64,000 nucleotides of DNA. Origin: Caerostris extrusa. Its lineage: Eukaryota. The first letter of the stretch is position 1, and every line of letters starts with the position of its first letter. Of this stretch, positions 4,501-63,300 are shown one piece after another. The notes beneath the pieces were generated by a model that had not been told where the DNA came from, did no database searches, and saw only the letters and a list, made by a program, of their open reading frames with translations. The translations under genes and the position numbers were made by a program. The stretch spans positions 2,414 through 66,413 of the forward strand of contig BPLR01000781.1 in assembly GCA_021605095.1 (NCBI GenBank). The letters are read 5' to 3'.

Positions 4501-4741
4501 CATTAACGAAAGTAAGTTTTCCAAATTTAATATCTCACGCCCAGAAAATCAGTGCTATGTTTGCTTCATCTTATATATGTGAACAAGTGCTTTCAATTGT
4601 GAACCTTAGAAAGAATTGTTTCAGAAATAGACTGACAGATTAGCATTCAGCTCGTTCCTTAGAATCAGTACATCTCACTTTAAACCTTAATATAAGAACT
4701 TTTAAAAATGAAATCGCAATTTCATTCATCTCATTAACATA

Positions 4742-6227
4742 CACTCATGTCCATAAATTAAGGATAATTCAGAATCACACAGAAATTGAATTCTAAAATA
4801 AAAATTTCACCTGTAGAATTATGACACACATCTTGAAGAAGAATATGCAAATTACAGGAAACCACCAGATGGCGCGGATAGTACGTCACAATGACGAGAG
4901 TGTAAGAGAGGGGTATATAAGGAAAGGTGGCAGAGAAGTAAAATTGTTCCCAAGCTCTTTAAAAGCCTTTCAGTGCAATAACCGCATAGTTATGGCACAA
5001 AGGAAGCATTTGGATGATTTTTTTACGTGGTAGAATTATCCGACGACTGTAATGTGGACGTACCCAGCTGGAAGTATCCGAGGAACTTGGAATCGCCCAG
5101 AGTGTCATCTCCAGGCTTAGGCAACGATTCTAAGATGATGGTAATGTGAGTAGATGTTACAGCACAGGTCGCCCCGAGTTACAACGCCGAATGAGGACCG
5201 GTATTTAGCAGTTACTGCCAAAAGAAACAGACGGAGCACAGCATCAGACCTGTCTCGTCAGCTACCGGTACGACAGTTTCAAGGCAGCCGTGTACAGACG
5301 CTTAAGGCACATTGGTCTATATGCTCGTAGGCCTGTCAGATGTGTTTCACTTTACCGCAACTCACTGTCGCCTGCGATTAACCTGGAGTAGAGAGCATGC
5401 ATTGTGGACACCGCAACAGTGGTCTGGTGTGATGTTTTCCGACGAGTCCAGGTTTAGTTTGCAGTCTGATTCTCGCCGGACTTTCATATGGAGAGCGCCA
5501 GGTACCCGTTACCACCACGAGAACACCATTGAACGACACCGTTACGGTGGTGCAGGATGGCTCGTTTGGGGAGGAATTATTCTTGGTTCCAGAACTGACC
5601 TGCATGTTCAGAGTGTAACGATGACAGGCCATATTTATCGGGATGTCATTCTGGAACAACATGTACGTTTGTTTCGGGGCGCCATGGGTGCTGAATTTCT
5701 GTTTATGGATGACAACGCCCGTCCTCACCGTGCAAACATTGTAGACGAATGCCTTCAATTGGAGGATATCACCCGTATGGATTGGCCAGCATACTCACCG
5801 GACTTGAATCCAATAGAGCATGTGTGGGATATGCTTGGCCGACGAATTGCAGCCCGTCAACCCTCTCCCACCTGTCAACCGGAACTTCGGAGGGCATTGC
5901 TGATGAGTGGTGTAATATTCCCAAGATAAGATTGATAATTTGATACTCAGCATGCCTAGGCGTTGTAAGGGCTGTATTGCATCGTCCGGGAGACTTACAT
6001 ATTAACCATATTAACCATGTTATACTGTTTTTGTAAATAGGTTCTTTTTTTAAATTTGCTCCAGGGAGTAAAAATCGCAATTTTTATTAATTATGTCAAA
6101 CATATAGCATCTTTTTTTGCTCTTTACTTTTGTTTAATAAATAGACTTTACAAATAAGTCAAATTTGTTTTGCTTCTGTCTCTTTCTTTGCCTGAACTTC
6201 ATTATCCTTAATTTATGGACATGAGTG
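4742..6227 (+). mobile_element. Tc1-family (DD34E) DNA transposon, ~1.49 kb, TA target duplication, ~30-bp TIRs
   Basis: TIRs cactcatgtccataaattaagg (4742-) and ccttaatttatggacatgagtg (-6227) each flanked by TA; internal transposase with HTH N-terminus and DDE domain. Confidence 0.8.
5040..5932 (+). pseudogene. Tc1-like transposase, DD34E catalytic domain, one frameshift near 5300
   Basis: N-terminal frame GRTQLEVSEELGIAQSVISRLRQRF..GRPRVTTPNEDRYLAVTAKRNRRSTASDLSRQL; ORF 5312-5929 ...WSREHALWTPQQWSGVMFSDESRFSL...WLVWGGIILGSRTDLHV...FMDDNARPHRA (34 residues) YSPDLNPIEHVWDMLGRRI; C-term SMPRRC..AVLHRPGD after stop. Confidence 0.8.
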
Positions 6228-6280
6228 TATTTAAATTGTAATACTTGTATATTGTTCTTAAAATTTTAGAAAAATGATCT

Positions 6281-7452: not shown

Positions 7453-7861
7453 TCCTATTTTGCGACTTGGCCTAAAGATATTTAAAAGGATTTGTTTCCT
7501 GAATGTCAAAAAGTGATATATTGTATCTTAATTTGCCAAATTACTCGCCGAAAGCCATAGTAATTAAGTTCTCTTCATATTACTTAGTGCCTAAATTAAA
7601 AATATAAATAGAATTCTTCTATACAGTGTATTACATAATAATCTCGTAATATATTCATATTACTAGCTCCGTATTACAGATTCTTCTCTAACCTGGTATA
7701 TGATTTCTTGATCTCTGATGAAAACGATATTGGCAATATCTTGCATAGTATTCAGTCACATGAGATGGCTTGTCAATTACGCTAATCCGCAATAATGAAA
7801 TAATCTCCTCATGCATTTCTATCATAATAATGTTTTAGGTCTCTTTTGATCGGCCTACAAA

Positions 7862-8056
7862 AATAAACTGCAAAATTGGGTTGTTGGGATTTGGCGTCAA
7901 AAATTCGTTTCACTAAAATACGCCAAGAAAAGAGTTGCTATTGTAACTGAAGTGAATTGCAAACAGTTCTAGATATCCTGTTTACCACATTTGGCGACTT
8001 ATTGCTCAGTTGGCGCCACAAAAAATTGCCAAATCCCACTATTTTGCGATTTGGCC
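7862..8056. mobile_element. foldback/palindromic MITE-like element (copy 2)
   Basis: gggttgttgggatttggcgtcaaaaa ... ttgccaaatcccactattttgcgatttggcc; same architecture as 7262-7452; both sit in a ~600-bp tandemly duplicated unit (7090-7460 / 7490-8060). Confidence 0.5.
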
Positions 8057-8899: not shown

Positions 8900-9904
8900 C
8901 TATTCAAGGTGGGAAAATTTTTCTTCTTTTAGTTTGGGGCTTTCTAGATGTCGTTTTTTTTTCTGTGCATCGTTCTCGATTCGACCTTTTCCTTTTCTGC
9001 GCTCGCTTAACACAAGAATCTTGTGCCCGCCTTCTTCGAACACTTGATTTTGGGTTTTGTGTCCGCTTTGCCGCCTCATGTATCTCAAGTTTCCCTTGCG
9101 ATATGCAGCGACATCAGAAGTAGCCTTCATTAGAGCGTGTTCTTTGAGCAGATACGAAAATGCTCTCAAAACCGCCTGTGTCAGCTCTTCGTCCCCCATG
9201 TCAGCTTTTTTTTTATCCGACATATTTCTGAAGCTATCTCTGCCAGATGCTCAGCGATCTCGATTAAAAGGAGTCCCAGGTACTTTGGAGGCTTCGAGTC
9301 GATGTGGGACAACGGATCCACTTCTAAAAAAGCCTCTTGATGGAAGAGGTGAAACGTTCCGCGAATTCCGGTTTAGAAAAACCATCACCCCACAAACTCC
9401 TTTTCTTCAGTTTTAAATCAAGTAAGCTGTTTTCGTATAGAGCTAAATACCTATTCGCTTCGTTGACAGCTGCATTGAAAACGTTCTTTTCAAAATATTG
9501 GGGTAAGATGTTTTTTAAATGCAGAGGTCGGAGCTCTTCGTTTTGACCATAAGTTACAGCTGCTTTGGCGGTAATTGCCTTTCCGAATTGATATATATGT
9601 AAAGCTAACGTATCCCTGGCTTTTCTGTCAAATATTAAATTCTGTAGGCATTTTGAGCTCAGGTTTGCAACTCCGGATTTGAAAGGGTTAGTGCTTCTTC
9701 TAACATCAACATTTTGGCGGGTTTCTTTTTCTTTGCTTTCACTTTTAATGCACCATTGCCGCTATACGTCATACAACCACTCTGTAATAAAGCTAATTGC
9801 TTAAAAGCTTCTGATAAAGCGTGCCTTTTCAAACCTCCTTCAAAATATGTGGCAATTACTTTATGAGCGATAAGTTGTATGGTGTGTCCATTTATTTTAT
9901 TCAC
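8900..9904 (-). pseudogene. broken minus-strand ORF series of unknown family (possible transposon-derived gene remnant)
   Basis: ORFs 9659-9904 (MNKINGHTIQLIAHKVIATYFEGGLKRHALSEAFKQLALLQSGCMTYSG...) and 8900-9223 (MSDKKKADMGDEELTQAVLRAFSYLLKEHALMKATSDVAAYRKGNLRYMRRQSGHKTQNQVFEEGGHKILVLSERRKGKGRIENDAQKKKRHLESPKLKEEK...) joined by frameshifted stretch (..YEKLLDLKLKKRSLWGDGFSKPEFAERFTSSIKRLF..); no family recognised. Confidence 0.3.
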
Positions 9905-10889
9905 AGCATTATATTCTTCTTCAATGAGTGATTATTGTTGAATTTACTTGGTTCAGCAACTTTGAAAGTAGTTCAAGGAAATTGTTTTCTACTTTTAAAG
10001 CCAAGACCTGATCACTAATTAAATTCTCCAGGCCTGTTTTGTAACTAATATCTTTAGTGTAAACCATTATTAATCTTCGGGAAGATGATTTGAATTTGTA
10101 AAAAGTGATTAATAATTTGAAGTGAAGATGATTCGAATTTCTAACCTAAATTTTGTTACATTTCATTTTGATATAATTAATAACAAAACAAAACATGTAA
10201 GGGAAAATAAAAAGGATGTTCAAAACATGATGCCAAAAAAATTACCATTACCGAAATTTAATAAAAATCTTGTTAAAAAACCATACAATTTGATATTTAA
10301 AAATTCTGCCTTCAACTGAGATTCAAATCATTACCTGATTATCTGGATCAGTGTGTGTAGTTTCTTTTAGATAAAACTTTCCATTTATGAATACTCCTCT
10401 TCTTTCAGAAAAACCTCTACCCTTCTTTCTACGTACAAAACCAGTTTTGATTTTACAGTTTAAACCAATTTTTTAACTGGCTTAATACAAATCAAATAGC
10501 ATTATAGTAATTTTCCACCACATTAACTTATGATGAACGTTCACAACAATTACTTAATTTCATAGGAAGCTTTTCAAGAGCTAGTCTTCAAGAATTTCAA
10601 TGTGAATCATAGAACTTGCTTCATTAATATAAGTTTTATAAAATCAGGCTCAGACGAAGGCAAATATATCTGAGATTATTTCAATATTTATTCTTCATAT
10701 GCGCATATTTGAGAACGTGAAAAACCATAAATATTTTATTGTTTACAACTTAGTTCTTAGTACTCTTCTATTGCTGTTGAGAAATTAATAAGATTTCTAT
10801 TTTTGAAATCATATAGTAAGGAAGAATAAGGTTAAAGTTCAATCAATATTTTCATTTTATGAAGCTGATAATTTTTTAGCTTATTGAAA

Positions 10890-11049: not shown

Positions 11050-11457
11050 CAGCTTACTGAAGGAACAAATCATGAAATTAAAATCTTGAACAAATTAGAA
11101 ATAAAATGATCTTCACTCCATAGCTTTGGGAAATATTGTTTGAAGGACACATTATGTCCTTTTCAGTGCTCCTCCAATTAATGTATTCTTTTCAGTATGA
11201 ATTAGAGTGGTTGTGCATGTATTAAAGGGTTTGGACAAGAATACGGCATTAGATCCATGAAGAGCAACTTCTTTTGGTGAGAGAGCATTATTATGTATAG
11301 TAGCCAAGCATAGATTTTTCAACATCCGAGCAAACATTACAGCATATGACCATCTAAGTCCATTTTCACAAAAATAAACCTGAATAACATTAAATATATT
11401 ATTTCATGTGCATCTTTTAACGATAGGATAGCATTATATAATATTTTTAATCTAGCA

Positions 11458-11949
11458 CATTTTTTTTTTTTTCTTCAATGGTGCAACAGCCTCATGGTAG
11501 ATTAAGGCCATCTGCCTACTGGCAGATTTCGGGATAGGAGATGTCGGTACTTACGTATTAACGCCACCGCAGCTACAGATTTGGTGGTTTTTAAGTGACG
11601 CCAATCTACACTTAAAATTTTTGTGACAAATCATAAAAAATATAAAATCAAAACACTTTATTTAAAAACAAAGTAGTCAATCGGATTTCGGTGGAAAATG
11701 GGCCGATACAGAGTTTAACATAGATTCAAAACAGTTTCTATTTTGGCGCATTGGCAGCTCTTTATTGGCGCGTTAGCACAACTTCTGCTGCGGTGGCGTT
11801 AATAAGTAAGTACCGAGATGTCTTTTTACGGATAAGGTTGCCAGCCCTAAGTTCAACAGTTATATCAGACCGAGACCTACGGTTTAAAATGAATTCCGAA
11901 CCACTACAAGCATCCATGGCTCCACTGGGACCCGAATCCGACACCGTGG
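11458..11949 (-). mobile_element. SINE subfamily C copy (5'-truncated head) interrupted by MITE insertion; part of tandem duplicated unit 11295-11950
   Basis: poly-T (rc poly-A tail) 11461-11474, body ttcttcaatggtgcaacagcctcatggtagattaaggcc...ctactggcagatttcgggataggagatgtc | insertion | tttttacggataagg...gacctacggtttaaaatgaattccgaaccactacaagcatccatgg; paralogous uninterrupted unit at 11975-12373. Confidence 0.6.
11545..11814. mobile_element. 270-bp MITE with 28-bp TIRs and 8-bp TSD gagatgtc (hAT- or P-like), nested in SINE
   Basis: TIR ggtacttacgtattaacgccaccgcagc (11545-11572) vs rc of 11787-11814 (27/28 match); gagatgtc at 11537-11544 and 11815-11822; empty site gggatatgagatgtttcc in paralog at ~12225. 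Confidence 0.75.
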
Positions 11950-12142
11950 ATTAGCATGTATAATAGCCAATGTATATATAATATGTATAATAGCATAGAT
12001 TTTTCAACATCCATGCAAGCTTTACAGCAAATAATCTAACTAACTCCTTTTTCACACAAATAAACTAGAATAGTATTAAATGTATTCTCTCATATGCATC
12101 TTTTAATGATAGGATAGCACAATATAATATTTCCATCTAGCA

Positions 12143-12373
12143 AATTCTTTTTCTTCTTCATTGGTGCAACAGCCTCATGGTGGACTAAGGCCCTCCCGCC
12201 TACTGGTAGATTTCGGGATATGAGATGTTTCCTTTTATGGATAGGGTTGTGAGCCCTACATTCAACAGTCATATTAGACCGGGACCTAAGGTTTAAAGAG
12301 GATTCGAACCACTACAAGCATCCATGGACTCGAATCCGAAAAATATGGCACCAAACGCTAGTCGCTCGGCCAT
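12143..12373 (-). mobile_element. SINE subfamily C copy (uninterrupted; empty-site paralog of 11458-11949)
   Basis: caaattctttttcttcttcattggtgcaacagcctcatggtggactaaggccc...gggacctaaggtttaaagaggattcgaaccactacaagcatccatgg...gctcggccatcaggcccc. Confidence 0.6.
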
Positions 12374-12509
12374 CAGGCCCCATTTAACACATTGCCATAG
12401 AAATATTTTGCAATAACAAAAAATTGCGAAATTGGAAGCATTCGTGTTTTCATCCATCTCTATCGAACAGAAAGAATTTTTTCTTTTTAAATTCTTTTAA
12501 TTACTGTTT

Positions 12510-13082: not shown

Positions 13083-13332
13083 GGGCCTGATGGCTAGTGG
13101 CAAGAGCTCTGTCGCTCGATACCACAGGTTTTGAGTTCGAGTCGCGGCAGTGCTATGGGTGTTTGTTGTTGGCTCGAATCTACTTTAAATCGTAGGTCCC
13201 GATCTAATATGACTGTAGAGCGTTGGGTGGACAACCTTAAACAGTAAAAAGAAAACATCTGTCTCAAAATCTGCCAATAAGCAGAAGGTTTTGGCCCACC
13301 ATAAGGCTGTTACGCCAATGAAAAAGTTATTG
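13083..13332 (+). mobile_element. SINE subfamily C copy (+)
   Basis: gggcctgatggctagtggcaagagctctgtcgctcgataccacaggttttgagttcgagtcgcggc..core..gatctaatatgactgtagagcgttgggtggacaacc...ggcccaccataaggctgttacgccaatgaaaaag matches rc of units at 11458-11949/12143-12373. Confidence 0.6.
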
Positions 13333-41349: not shown

Positions 41350-44300
41350 AAATAATTATAATGTGTGAACATGATGTTGAGGTTAGAGGTCACATTGGAT
41401 ACCGAATTGGATTGAGTTTTTGCGAACTTGACATCGACTTGAGTTATCATTTCAAAAGATATTGGATGTTTTTTTCAAAACGGCTGCCTTTGATTGGTGA
41501 TATATTTTGTCTTAAGCGATTTTTATTTGAGTTGAAAGTTGATATTTGGTCTTGATTCTTGAGGTTCTTCGAAGTATATTATTTCGGTGATTGAATTTTG
41601 CCTAGATACTTACAATCTTGTGACTTTAGTTGAACTATTTTCATTGTATATGGTGTGATGAGTATTTTTGCTGGTGTTGCAAGCATGATGCAGATGGAAG
41701 TGACCGACGGTTGTTATTCCCCGGAGGGAGTACCATTGCTGGGAGCTGAAGCGAATGTGTCGACAAATGTGCCAAAGAAAGCTTCCCCAGAGGATACGTG
41801 TCGGCAGTTAGTTACTGCAAAGAAGGAAATGAAGATTCTGGACGATATTATTGCCACAACCAAGAACTCTGACCTTCAAAGTGATTATGATCAGATGAAC
41901 GCTAATCTGATGCAAAAGCGCCAACTGTTGGCGAAATGGGCGAGTCGAGTTCCTTGTCCTCTTGCCAATTGTAATATTCATCATAGTAATGTTAAAAAAT
42001 CTAAAAGACCTGTTGACGAACTAACCAATCAAAATGATAAAACTAATGCATCCTAAGAGTTTAAAACTCCTAATAAAAACGTATTAAAAAGCAAACTTCA
42101 TCCCTAGCACTCAAAATTCTGTTAAGACTATTAACAAATTTGATACCTTGAGCACTGATGATAATGTTGAAGTAGAGGAACCCGTCCAAATTGTGAGAAA
42201 AATGCCTCCTATTATGGTTAAGCCGAAATCAAACTTAAACGAAATGCTTAAACGTTTCGATCAAGAATTTGATGGTAATGTGAATGTTAAATTAGCAGGG
42301 GAGATGTTGAAAATGTTCCCTAACAATGAAGATCAACATAGGGAAATTACTCGTTATCTTAATCAGCATGAAATTGAGTATTTCGTAATAACGCCAAAAT
42401 TTCTTCGACCCTCAAAGCGGTTATTAAAGGCCTTCCAAAGAACACCCCCACTGAGGAAATTAAGGAAGCGCTTGCTGAAAAGACTTCATCGTAGAAAAAG
42501 TAGTACAATTAACCAGGGCTAAGGATAAACAACCCCTACCAATTTTTCAGGTTACTTTCGCTCGGTCAAATAAAAATAATGAAATCTTTCAGCTCACCAA
42601 ATTACTCTATCTATCCATTGTTGTTGAAAAGTATAACAAACGTCCTCTCACCCTACAATGTTACAAATGTAACTTTTTTCATCACAGTTCGAGTAATTGT
42701 GGTTTTAAAGCTAGATGCCTTAAATGTGGAGAGGAACATTCTCATAAGGACTGTCAACTTCAAGAAAAACTAGAAATACCCAAATGCATCAACTGTGGGG
42801 AGCCAGGACACATTGCTGCCTGGCGGGGATGTGCGAAATTTCACAAGATTAAGACTATTTCCACCAAATACGCTACCATTCCAAAATTCACCCCTGCACG
42901 ACAGGTCACACCTAACTTCTCCTATGCCGCGGCTGCTAAGAATATTACTCCACAACCAATCAATACTAACTCTAATTTTACTTTTATTATTCTTACGTAG
43001 AGCAATTGCCACATATAAAAATGACTGTTGGGATCGCAAACTGCAAACCGTCAATGTTGAAGATGGATCCATGTGGAATTTCTGTAAAAATTTTAGGAAA
43101 AAAAGGACTAAAATAACTCTCTCCAAACTCCGCAATCCACTGTTACAACAGCCACTGATAAAGCTGAAGTTTTAGCTACGACTTTACAGGATCAATTTAA
43201 AGAAAATGAAACTAACAACACTAACATTGTAACTGAAGTAGAAAACACCATTACTTCCTTTCTCGTCCAACCTCACAATAACGATGATTTTCCCAACACT
43301 AAAGCTTCCTTCATAATAAACTGCATCACTAACCTTAAAATCGGTAAAACCCCTAGCTTAGAACGTATTACTAACAAAATGCTCAAAAATATTCCTTTTA
43401 AAATAGTTATACAAATTTGCAAAATAACCGATGATATCCTTTCTACTAATCCTTTCCTAAGAATTGGAAGACTGCTCGCATTCTTCCAATCCTTAAACCC
43501 GGCAAAGACCCATCCTCTCCTAACAGCTACAGACTGATCTCTACTCTCCTGCCTAAGTAAACTAATTGAACTCGTAATTGTTAACATCCTAAATGAAGAA
43601 TCTGATAAACTTAACATTTTAATTTCGCAGCAATTCGGGTTTACCAAAAACTTGTCAACTACGCATCAACTTTATAATCTCACAGAAAATATTTCAGAAG
43701 GGTTTTCAGGAAATTCGACACTGCAGTAGTTTTCCTGGATGTCGCTAAGGCGTTCGATCGTGTTTGGATCAATGGTTTAATATATAAAATGATAAAATAT
43801 CAATATCCTACCTACTTAATCCGTACCATACACAATTATCTTACAAACAGAAATTTTGTTGTTTCTGTAGATAACACTCAAAAACTGTCATATCCTTGCC
43901 GGTGTTCCTCAGGGCTCGATCTTGGGACCATTTTTGTTTAACAGATACACCAACGACATCCCACAAGATCACAAAATTAAATTAACACTTTACGCGGACG
44001 ATACTGCTATTATCACACAGGGGCGAAACATAAACATAATCAAGAAAAACTTACAAAACTACATACACACGCTTGAAAATGGGCTCATTAACTGGAAAAT
44101 AAAAACTTAATGTCTCGAAAACTGAAGCAGTGCTATTCACCAGGAAAAATAAACTAATTCCCCCTAACATAACTATTTATAATGCTAATATTTCCTGGTC
44201 CAAAGAAACTAAATACCTTGGCATAATACTTGACAGCAAATTAATATATAAATCGCATATTAATTATCTACTCACTAAATTCAATAATCAATTAAGAAAA

Positions 44301-45100
44301 CTCTTCCCCGTAATTTGTAGAAATTCCTCACTAACAATTGAACTAAAAAAATTAATCTACCTTTCTTATCTTAGACCTGTCATTGCATATGCGAGTCCAG
44401 TTTGGGGTTCTACAGCCAATAACAACTTTCTCGTGCTCGAAAGACTCGAAAATAAAATTATTCGTATGATCTCTGATGCACCCTGGTATTTCAGAAATAG
44501 TGATATTCGGCACTCTCTTGATATTCCTAGTTTCCGCGCATTCGTCGAGAAACTTGCAAAAACTTTTATGACTCCGTTTCCTGATCCACTAACCCTGTTC
44601 TAAGTGATTTAAAAATATACGACTATGACGTCACTCTACCCAGAAATCGCAAAAAGACCTCGCTATACTCTTAACATTAACAAATAATTTCCTCCTTTCT
44701 GGAGATTTTTCGATTTCGGTTTCGCTGTAGCCTCGTTAATGTTTTTCTTTTTTATTGCATTTTTGTTATTGGATTTATCATCAGTGCTTATTCCTTTAAT
44801 TTTTTAATATTTTTGCTTATGGGATGATTTTTGTATTTTTACTCTTCTTTTGTAACTTTTACTTTCTGTCTTAATTGTAATGTTTTTGTTCTCTGATGTT
44901 AGAAATTATTCCCTCTCTGATTTATTTAATTTTTCTTACAATTGGCAAAAAGGGCTCGACCACCAGTCACTGTTCACCATTCGCCAAGTGGAGGTGTGGT
45001 CGTTGCGCGACCAAAGCGCTCCATCAAGTCACCAATAATAATGACGTTAGAGGCCTAAGGCATCTCCCTAAAAGTGAAGCTATAAAATAAAAAATAAGTA
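41350..45100 (+). mobile_element. Jockey-clade non-LTR retrotransposon (LINE), ~3.7 kb, frameshifted, endonuclease region apparently missing
   Basis: ORF1 41655-42056, 42148-42522 and CCHC zinc knuckle (CYKCNFFHHSSSNCGFKARCLKCGEEHSHKDCQ...CINCGEPGHIAAWRGC) ~42640-42900; ORF2 RT motifs FGFTKNLSTTHQL, KAFDRVWINGLIYKM, GVPQGSILGPFLFNRYTNDIP, LYADDTAI, EAVLFTRK, PVWGSTANNNFLVLERLENKIIRMISDAPWYFRN; structured 3' UTR to ~45100. Confidence 0.8.
43140..44603 (+). pseudogene. LINE ORF2 reverse transcriptase (frameshifted)
   Basis: RT motifs listed above in three shifting frames; ORFs 43922-44110 and 44130-44603. Confidence 0.75.
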
Positions 45101-62079: not shown

Positions 62080-63300
62080 GACACCAAAGAAAACCTTCAC
62101 TTGTGCAAGATATGCCACAAATCATTTCCTGAAAAAATTTATTAGACTTGCTGTACACATACTGAAGAAAAGCCATATGTGTGCAATATATGCAGTAAAG
62201 CATTTACATTAATGAGTAATTTTTTATAAACATATAACAATTCATGATAAAGAAGAACCTAAGAAATATATCTGTAATATATGTGGTAAAGATTTCTCTT
62301 ACAAAAGTTGCCTAAAATCTCATTTACTGACATATAAAAGAAAAGTCTTATTCTTGTGATATTTGCTTAAAAGGATTTTCTCAAAAGTGCATATAGAAGA
62401 CTCATTTTTAATCATTCAAAAGGCAGGCCTTATGTTTGCGATGTGTGCTCTAAAACATTTACTCGAAAAGATCATGTAAGTTGTCATTTACATTCTCATA
62501 AGGAAGAGAAACCCTTTGCTTGTGATATATGCCAACAGAGATTTACTCAAAAAAATCCTTTGAAAAGACACATGGTTCTACATACTCAAATAAAACAATA
62601 TGTTTGTAAATTATGTGGTAAAGAATTTCTTTGCAAACAAGATTTGAAACAGCATTTATACATTCATGCCTTTGGAGAAAAACCATACAAATGTAACAAG
62701 CACAAGAAAGGTATTTCTCGGAAAAGTTATTTGAATGAACATTCCCTTACTCGCATGGAGGAAAAACCTTTTATTTGCGATATATGTAATAAAAGCTTTA
62801 TGTGGAAGGCAAGTTTAAAAACTCATTTACTTAGTCATGCAGAAAAGGGAACTTTTTCTTGTGTTTTATGTAATAAAAGTTACATTTATAAAGAATCTTT
62901 TTAACCAAACATTTACGTACTCATACAAATGAAAAACCTTATGAGTGTGAAGTAGTAAAAAAATTTCATACAAGATCAGAGTTAAGGCAACATTCAGGAG
63001 TTCATGTTATTGGGAAACCATTTAAATGTAACAAGTGTAAGAAGGGTTTTCTCGGAAAGGTTATTTGGAGGAACATTCCCGTACTCATGTATAGAGAAAA
63101 CATTTATTGGAGGTATATTTAATAAAGATTTCATTTGAAAGGGAAGTTCAAACATTCATTTATTTAATCAAGTATAGAAAAATAAACTTTTCTTAAATTT
63201 TATGTAATAAAAGTTACATTTGTAAAGTGTCTTTAATCAGGCATATATTTGCTCATACAAATGAAAACCCTTGTGAAGTATATAATAAAAATATTTTATA
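62080..63300 (+). pseudogene. C2H2 zinc-finger array (~10 finger units) with multiple stops/frameshifts at both ends
   Basis: Repeated C..C...(F/L)....L..H..H TGEKPY-type units: ..CKICHKSFPEKIY*..EEKPYVCNICSKAFTLMSNF.. upstream; ..EKPYECEVVKKFHTRSELRQHSGVH..KPFKCNKCKKGF.. downstream, all broken. Confidence 0.55.
62443..62904 (+). CDS. intact 153-aa ORF of five C2H2 fingers inside the decaying array
   Basis: MCSKTFTRKDHVSCHLHSHKEEKPFACDICQQRFTQKNPLKRHMVLHTQIKQYVCKLCGKEFLCKQDLKQHLYIHAFGEKPYKCNKHKKGISRKSYLNEHSLTRMEEKPFICDICNKSFMWKASLKTHLLSHAEKGTFSCVLCNKSY.. Confidence 0.45.
   Translation: MCSKTFTRKDHVSCHLHSHKEEKPFACDICQQRFTQKNPLKRHMVLHTQIKQYVCKLCGKEFLCKQDLKQHLYIHAFGEKPYKCNKHKKGISRKSYLNEHSLTRMEEKPFICDICNKSFMWKASLKTHLLSHAEKGTFSCVLCNKSYIYKESF

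Follow-up and report, generated by a model that had tools for sequence, protein, structure and literature searches.

The locus and its repeats

The window, by which we mean the whole 64-kb stretch of DNA analysed here, contains a short non-autonomous, MITE-like element of 269 bp at positions 11546-11814, which its TIRs and its alignment with a parent element identify as an internal-deletion derivative of a Merlin transposon. The element's own 5' to 3' direction is that of the minus strand of the window. A pattern search of the window showed that it is bounded by 28-bp TIRs matching at 27 of 28 positions, just as the first-pass annotation had described, and the 28-mer found no match in 100 shuffles of the sequence. 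The size given in that annotation needed a small correction: a short TIR element is indeed present, but it measures 269 bp rather than 270 bp. The 3' TIR (11546-11573), which reads GGTACTTACGTATTAACGCCACCGCAGC on the plus strand, matches both TIRs of the intact autonomous element exactly, while the 5' TIR (11787-11814, minus strand; GGTACTTACTTATTAACGCCACCGCAGC in element orientation) carries the single mismatch, a T for G at position 10, where autonomous Merlin copies have G. Both ends start with GG (GGTACTTACG...), and the TIRs pair when the element is folded as single-stranded DNA (z = -7.0). Direct reading of the sequence confirmed that perfect 8-bp direct repeats surround the element, the TSD GAGATGTC being found on the left at 11538-11545 and on the right at 11815-11822 (8/8 identical).

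No second occurrence of the element body, the TIR or the TIR's 16-nt core was found in the 64-kb window, and exact-pattern scans with the TIR returned 0 matches in viral, metagenome and prokaryotic-genome collections. The element is short, non-coding, TIR-bounded, TSD-flanked and derived from an autonomous element, as a MITE should be; with one copy in 64 kb, the label 'MITE family' is a structural one.

The insertion lies in the first of two tandem units, both on the minus strand. Unit 1 (11289-11950) consists of ~170 bp of non-SINE flank (11289-11461) and a SINE interrupted by the Merlin element, the A-tail of the SINE appearing as a T run at 11462-11474 and its head being truncated near 11950. 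Unit 2 (11975-12380) consists of the same flank (11975-12144) followed by a full SINE (12145-12380). When the units were aligned pairwise after in-silico removal of 11546-11822 from unit 1, they were 84.3% identical over 376 columns, the ~170 bp of non-SINE flank included, which bears out the earlier proposal that flank and SINE were duplicated in tandem. According to self-BLAST, this flank occurs nowhere else in the window. Since the duplication takes in the flank, and the SINE of unit 1 loses part of its head where the units meet, the arrangement reflects a local tandem duplication and not two SINE insertions, and the ~16% divergence implied by the unit identity makes this duplication an old one. 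A motif, ATGTATA(A/G)TAGC(C), opens each unit and is present once more at the junction of units 1 and 2 (agcatgtataatagccaa tgtatatataat atgtataatagcat; copies located at 11283-11306 and 11944-11996). The extra motif at the junction suggests that slippage occurred at the duplication breakpoint or that part of a third unit survives there.

The host SINE is one of a group of at least 16 dispersed copies in the window that share a common head of ~120 nt (self-BLAST and a 16-copy alignment). Approximate starts of SINE copies are 1446, 2618, 3736, 8424, 10895, 12484, 13069, 40786, 48884, 54616, 57517, 57766, 58897 and 60925. The shared head is tRNA-like (GGGCCTGATGGCCGAGTGGCTAGCGC...GGTTCGAGTCC...CCACTTTAAACCGTAGGTCCCGGTC), and several copies have motifs resembling the pol III boxes A (TGGCCGAGTGG) and B (GGTTCGAGTC); neither ARAGORN nor Rfam gave a tRNA match in the head. 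The copies carry at least three different 3' bodies. That of the tandem-unit SINEs recurs in the window only in a third, dispersed copy in the opposite orientation (13155-13326, plus strand). Exact-pattern scans with the SINE core found 0 matches in viral, metagenome and prokaryotic-genome collections, and the window SINE was absent from ~110 kb of DNA from four spider species and an isopod, comprising 30 kb from A. ventricosus (L001 and L006), ~20 kb each from A. bruennichi, T. clavata and C. darwini, and 20 kb from Armadillidium vulgare. Four further repeats of the window have counterparts, 70-84% identical, in a 20-kb locus of Caerostris darwini taken at random, and C. darwini is the only one among the sampled loci to share them with the window.

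Several other features were recorded in the window. A degenerate Tc1/mariner element at 4740-6229 contains an ORF (5312-5929, plus strand) with the Pfam domain DDE_3, whose best relatives are from Araneus ventricosus (96%), Trichonephila clavipes and Stegodyphus. At the nucleotide level this copy is 95.6% identical to one in Araneus ventricosus (L006) and ~94% identical to contigs of several unrelated read sets, a metagenome scaffold among them; it is another widely shared DNA transposon. Judged by such transposable-element matches, the window most likely comes from an araneoid spider other than those sampled, although at least the Merlin family described below is also seen in an isopod assembly. 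Retrotransposon remnants extend over 41655-44700, with two ORFs without domain matches at 41655-42522 and overlapping ORFs on both strands at 42770-43647. Within them, a 157-aa ORF at 44130-44603, which we read as the C-terminus of a non-LTR reverse transcriptase, has a sub-threshold HTH_45 hit as its sole Pfam match, and 43919-44688 has a 70-81% match in a C. darwini locus. Finally, an ORF at 62443-62904 (plus strand) encodes at least five C2H2 zinc fingers by Pfam; no relatives were found at E <= 1e-20 in a large protein database, and the ORF may be an exon of a host gene.

Order of the duplication and the insertion

Alignment of the two units upheld the view that the element is nested in a SINE and that the adjacent unit retains a paralogous empty site. 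In unit 2 the corresponding sequence, gagatgtt (12222-12229), runs on uninterrupted as first reported. The description of this site as a precise empty site needs a small correction, as the alignment showed that unit 2 has two more T-run bases than unit 1 and the empty site is not base-for-base identical. The dispersed SINE copy at 13155-13326 provides an independent empty site, being likewise uninterrupted at the insertion point, and it shares the longer T run. For this reason, the extra bases are ancestral SINE sequence and no excision footprint.

The relative ages of the two events can be compared through the sequence pairs that each of them created. The paired TIRs and TSDs differ at 1 of 36 sites, against a difference of 15.7% between the units, and a result of one mismatch or fewer would have a probability of ~0.017 if insertion and duplication were of equal age. 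The point estimate for the age of the insertion is ~0.16 of that of the duplication, with an upper bound of ~0.8. The Merlin insertion is therefore younger than the tandem duplication, as had been claimed, and the two uninterrupted SINE copies agree with this. The window copy is not obviously very recent either, given its ~5% divergence from an intact element elsewhere.

The alternative is that the element was already present before the duplication and was later excised from unit 2, in which case the 'empty' site would be an excision site. A 2-nt indel does fall exactly at the site when unit 2 is compared with the in-silico excised unit 1, and on its own this would look like a footprint. Excision by cut-and-paste, though, as a rule leaves behind one or more copies of the TSD together with additional bases, and unit 2 has no such TSD copy with extra bases, while the occurrence of the longer T run in the independent copy at 13155-13326 marks it as ancestral. 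The TIRs and TSDs are moreover far less diverged (1/36) than the units (15.7%), so an early insertion followed by excision must be considered very unlikely. Insertion of the Merlin element into unit 1 after the duplication remains our reading. The filled and empty sites together fix the succession of SINE insertion, tandem duplication and Merlin insertion, and the complete order is demonstrated as SINE insertion, tandem duplication, contraction of the T run in unit 1 and then Merlin insertion. Because the SINE and its flank were copied before the element arrived, the sister unit keeps an empty site.

Derivation from an autonomous Merlin parent

Relatives of the element were recovered by a protein search with GBO35922.1, followed by inspection of the encoding contigs. 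The one used for the anatomy of the window copy is the element L018 of Logan SRR2592959 (544-1699), which is 1156 bp long, has perfect TIRs identical to 11546-11573 and carries an intact 293-aa ORF; the contig ends there and its TSD is unreadable. Aligned with both ends of this autonomous copy, the 269-bp element is identical at 235 of 248 positions (94.8%), and a single internal deletion of ~898 bp together with ~19 nt of filler separates the short form from the 1156-bp parent. At the 5' end, positions 1-51 of the parent are kept at 11764-11814 on the minus strand (48/51 identical). The filler at the internal deletion, AAAGAGCTGCCAATGCGCC (11745-11763, minus strand), in part resembles the adjoining 5' subterminal motif GCGCCAAT, and some of it is also found in a variant 5' region of L002; the global alignment places 4 of its 19 nt (positions 52-55 of the short element), leaving the other 15 unaligned. 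Parent positions 950-1156 are kept at 11546-11744 on the minus strand (187/197 identical, with 2-nt and 10-nt indels) and hold the last transposase codons, the 3' UTR and the 3' TIR. A 17-nt blastn extension into the flank of L002 was treated as a chance match.

The only coding content of the 269-bp element is a remnant of 24 codons, the last of the Merlin transposase, with its stop (...NCFESMLNSVSAHFPPKSD*), detected by tblastn at 11677-11751 on the minus strand. The queries included GBO35922.1 and were two A. ventricosus Merlin proteins from the supplement of PMC8101967. Positions 11736-11680 (minus strand) encode NCFESMLNSVSAHFPPKSD followed by the stop, while the C-terminus of GBO35922.1 reads DCFESMLKSVSAHFPPKSD, giving 17 identical residues of 19; against the transposases P0122 and P0251, 19 of the 24 residues are identical (E = 7e-9). 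No further Merlin-like coding sequence was found by tblastn in the 64-kb window, and the statement that the window holds no autonomous partner thus stands. BLAST also joined HLGTYL (11803-11832, minus strand; TSD and outer TIR) to HLGSYL of the Merlin transposase, a coincidence; the match is a chance extension, since it crosses a stop codon, requires an 8-residue gap and lies outside the homology to parent coding sequence.

Other copies were delimited in three orb-weaver genomes, and TIR mismatches in them were counted against the left-hand (3') TIR of the window element, 11546-11573. A copy in A. ventricosus (L001, BGPR01059972.1, 6396-8012; 1617 bp) has 1 and 3 TIR mismatches, a degenerate ORF and the TSD GATTGTTT / GATTGTTT. 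The T. clavata copy (L004, 9863-11066; 1204 bp) has the same 15-nt terminus, an intact 292-aa ORF and the TSD GATAAGCT / GATAAGGT. The C. darwini locus L005 contains three copies: one of 1156 bp (9520-10675) with 1 and 0 TIR mismatches, an ORF truncated to 171 aa and no recognisable TSD, and two without an ORF that share the same 16-18-nt terminus, of 244 bp (5208-5451; TSD AAAAATAA / AAAAATAA) and 196 bp (9201-9396; TSD TAAAATGC / CAAAATGC). A 16-nt terminus is common to the A. ventricosus, C. darwini, T. clavata and Logan copies. The TSD length first noted in the window recurs at TIR-bearing copies elsewhere, 8-bp TSDs being present in four of the five other fully delimited copies (8/8, 8/8, 7/8 and 7/8).

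Some of these relatives have peculiarities of their own. The 1156-bp C. darwini copy, flanked by CTTCATTG on one side and CGAAATTC on the other, alone among the delimited copies lacks a TSD; its TIRs are near-perfect, and it sits 124 bp from the 196-bp Merlin-type MITE, a distance at which rearrangement between the two copies is possible. The A. ventricosus copy contains ~6-7 partial TIR copies in tandem (GTTAATACGTAAGTAC + CCGCCAAATTGG; 7677-7949), with a period of mostly 34 bp, immediately internal to its true 3' TIR, and this array accounts for its length of 1617 bp in place of 1156 bp. An intact Merlin copy with one and the same 3' flank (GTCAACTT...) was found in ten read sets (L013-L017, L019-L022 and L002), all Logan contigs (SRR234348xx, SRR2791632, SRR2797238 and SRR2829245). 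The longer contigs L013-L017 carry a PIF/Harbinger-type transposase gene (HTH_Tnp_4 and DDE_Tnp_4) 3' of the Merlin copy, and the shared flank is that of one fixed or shared insertion adjoining another transposon.

The complete elements with a TIR identical to that of the window element, L018 and L002, encode the proteins P0251 and P0122. The 293-aa product belongs to the ISXO2-like Pfam family DDE_Tnp_IS1595 (PF12762; E = 3e-14, with a score of 53.7 that exceeds the curated cut-off of 27), and this is the only transposase that the complete elements with the identical TIR encode. The segments VEIDES, YSDSWKGY and HTQTVERMW align with Merlin proteins of Linepithema and Strongyloides, reference sequences taken from the supplement of PMC8101967, and represent the conserved D, D and E blocks.

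Taken together, the parent alignment, the coding remnant and the shared termini leave us with little doubt that a 1156-bp DNA transposon of the Merlin superfamily gave rise, by internal deletion, to the non-autonomous 269-bp insert. The anatomy of the insert, its homology to autonomous Merlin and the 8-bp TSDs at this and other copies are, like the order of events, established by direct comparison, and a mechanism can be proposed on this basis. The loss of ~898 bp with nearly the whole transposase gene may have arisen by abortive gap repair, of which a deletion accompanied by ~19 nt of filler is a typical outcome. As the short form has no transposase capacity of its own, we infer that a Merlin DDE transposase encoded elsewhere in the genome acted on it in trans. 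This transposase would bind the TIRs, excise the element and join it to a target cut with an 8-bp stagger at GAGATGTC, and repair of the staggered ends would produce the two direct repeats. The insertion hit the body of a putative tRNA-type SINE that had already been duplicated locally along with ~170 bp of flank.

The first-pass annotation had pointed to the hAT or P superfamily, and this assignment had to be given up. In its favour, an 8-bp TSD suits hAT and P elements as well as Merlin. hAT TIRs, however, have the terminus consensus YARNG and hAT transposases combine BED, RNase H and hATC regions, while the P element has a TIR of ~31 bp starting CATGATG and a THAP-domain transposase. The TIR of the window element starts GGTAC, which agrees with neither consensus. 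For hAT the TSD length fits but the terminus GGTAC and the Merlin partner do not; for the P element the TSD length alone fits, the partner again being Merlin. The interior of the element shares homology with the 3' part of a DDE_Tnp_IS1595 (Merlin) gene, namely its coding end and UTR, and the autonomous elements that share its TIR encode the transposase of that family only, so that a MITE mobilised by a hAT or P transposase is hardly credible. Least probable of all, to the point of being negligible, is a chance inverted repeat or locally generated palindrome that is no mobile element, for which nothing speaks beyond the single copy in the window, and against which stand both the 0 matches to the 28-mer in 100 shuffles and the presence of the same termini in several other genomes, around elements that each lie at a different site and have an 8-bp TSD of their own.

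Spread of the family and comparison with known elements

The parent Merlin family occurs widely among orb-weaving spiders, and an isopod assembly seems to contain it too. Several public read sets hold intact Merlin copies whose TIRs are perfect. In Armadillidium vulgare, a copy lies at 9451-10511 of locus L023 on JAWIIT010000001.1, a chromosome-scale isopod scaffold of 58.43 Mb; its 28-bp 5' TIR is identical, and at the nucleotide level it is 93-94% identical to the window element. Transposases at least 90% identical at the amino-acid level (the P0122 cluster) come from Araneus, Caerostris and the isopod Armadillidium vulgare. NCBI has labelled the isopod Merlin protein 'UNVERIFIED_CONTAM', and a 72-aa fragment in the same cluster is filed under Klebsiella pneumoniae. 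The isopod match points to either horizontal transfer between spiders and the isopod or contamination, and the occurrence of the parent family in spiders and in the isopod assembly makes it a possible case of horizontal transfer. A stronger claim, that the 1.16-kb Merlin family is currently active and spreading horizontally among arthropods and that the window copy is the product of a recent non-autonomous burst, we regard as doubtful.

In itself the window element is a routine case of nested insertion, as Merlin elements, Merlin-derived MITEs and the abundance of Merlin in A. ventricosus were already known. Its value, mainly one for annotation, lies in the correction of the superfamily call from hAT or P to Merlin and in the tie between a short orphan element and an autonomous parent.

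The Merlin superfamily (Feschotte 2004) is related to the bacterial IS1016/IS1595 elements, and its members have TIRs of 24-462 bp that begin with GG and TSDs of 8 or 9 bp (PMC8101967). A survey reported 112 Merlin protein matches in the spider Araneus ventricosus, among them GBO35922.1 (PMC8101967), the closest named relative used in this work. The window element resembles the superfamily in its 8-bp TSD, in its terminal GG and in its 28-bp TIR, which lies within the 24-462 bp range, and its autonomous relative encodes the single DDE_Tnp_IS1595 transposase of ~293 aa with D, D and E blocks; it differs in being a 269-bp deletion derivative without a transposase.

Merlin-derived MITEs are described from the microsporidian Nosema (PMC4405373), and the insect MITE catalogue iMITEdb (PMC5199201) serves as a further example. 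Such MITEs are likewise short and non-coding and keep the TIRs and subterminal sequence of autonomous Merlin, but they are defined as multi-copy families, whereas here there is one copy in the window. The MITEs of hAT and P elements share with the window element an 8-bp TSD, short TIRs and small size, but its termini and the transposase homologous to it are those of Merlin.
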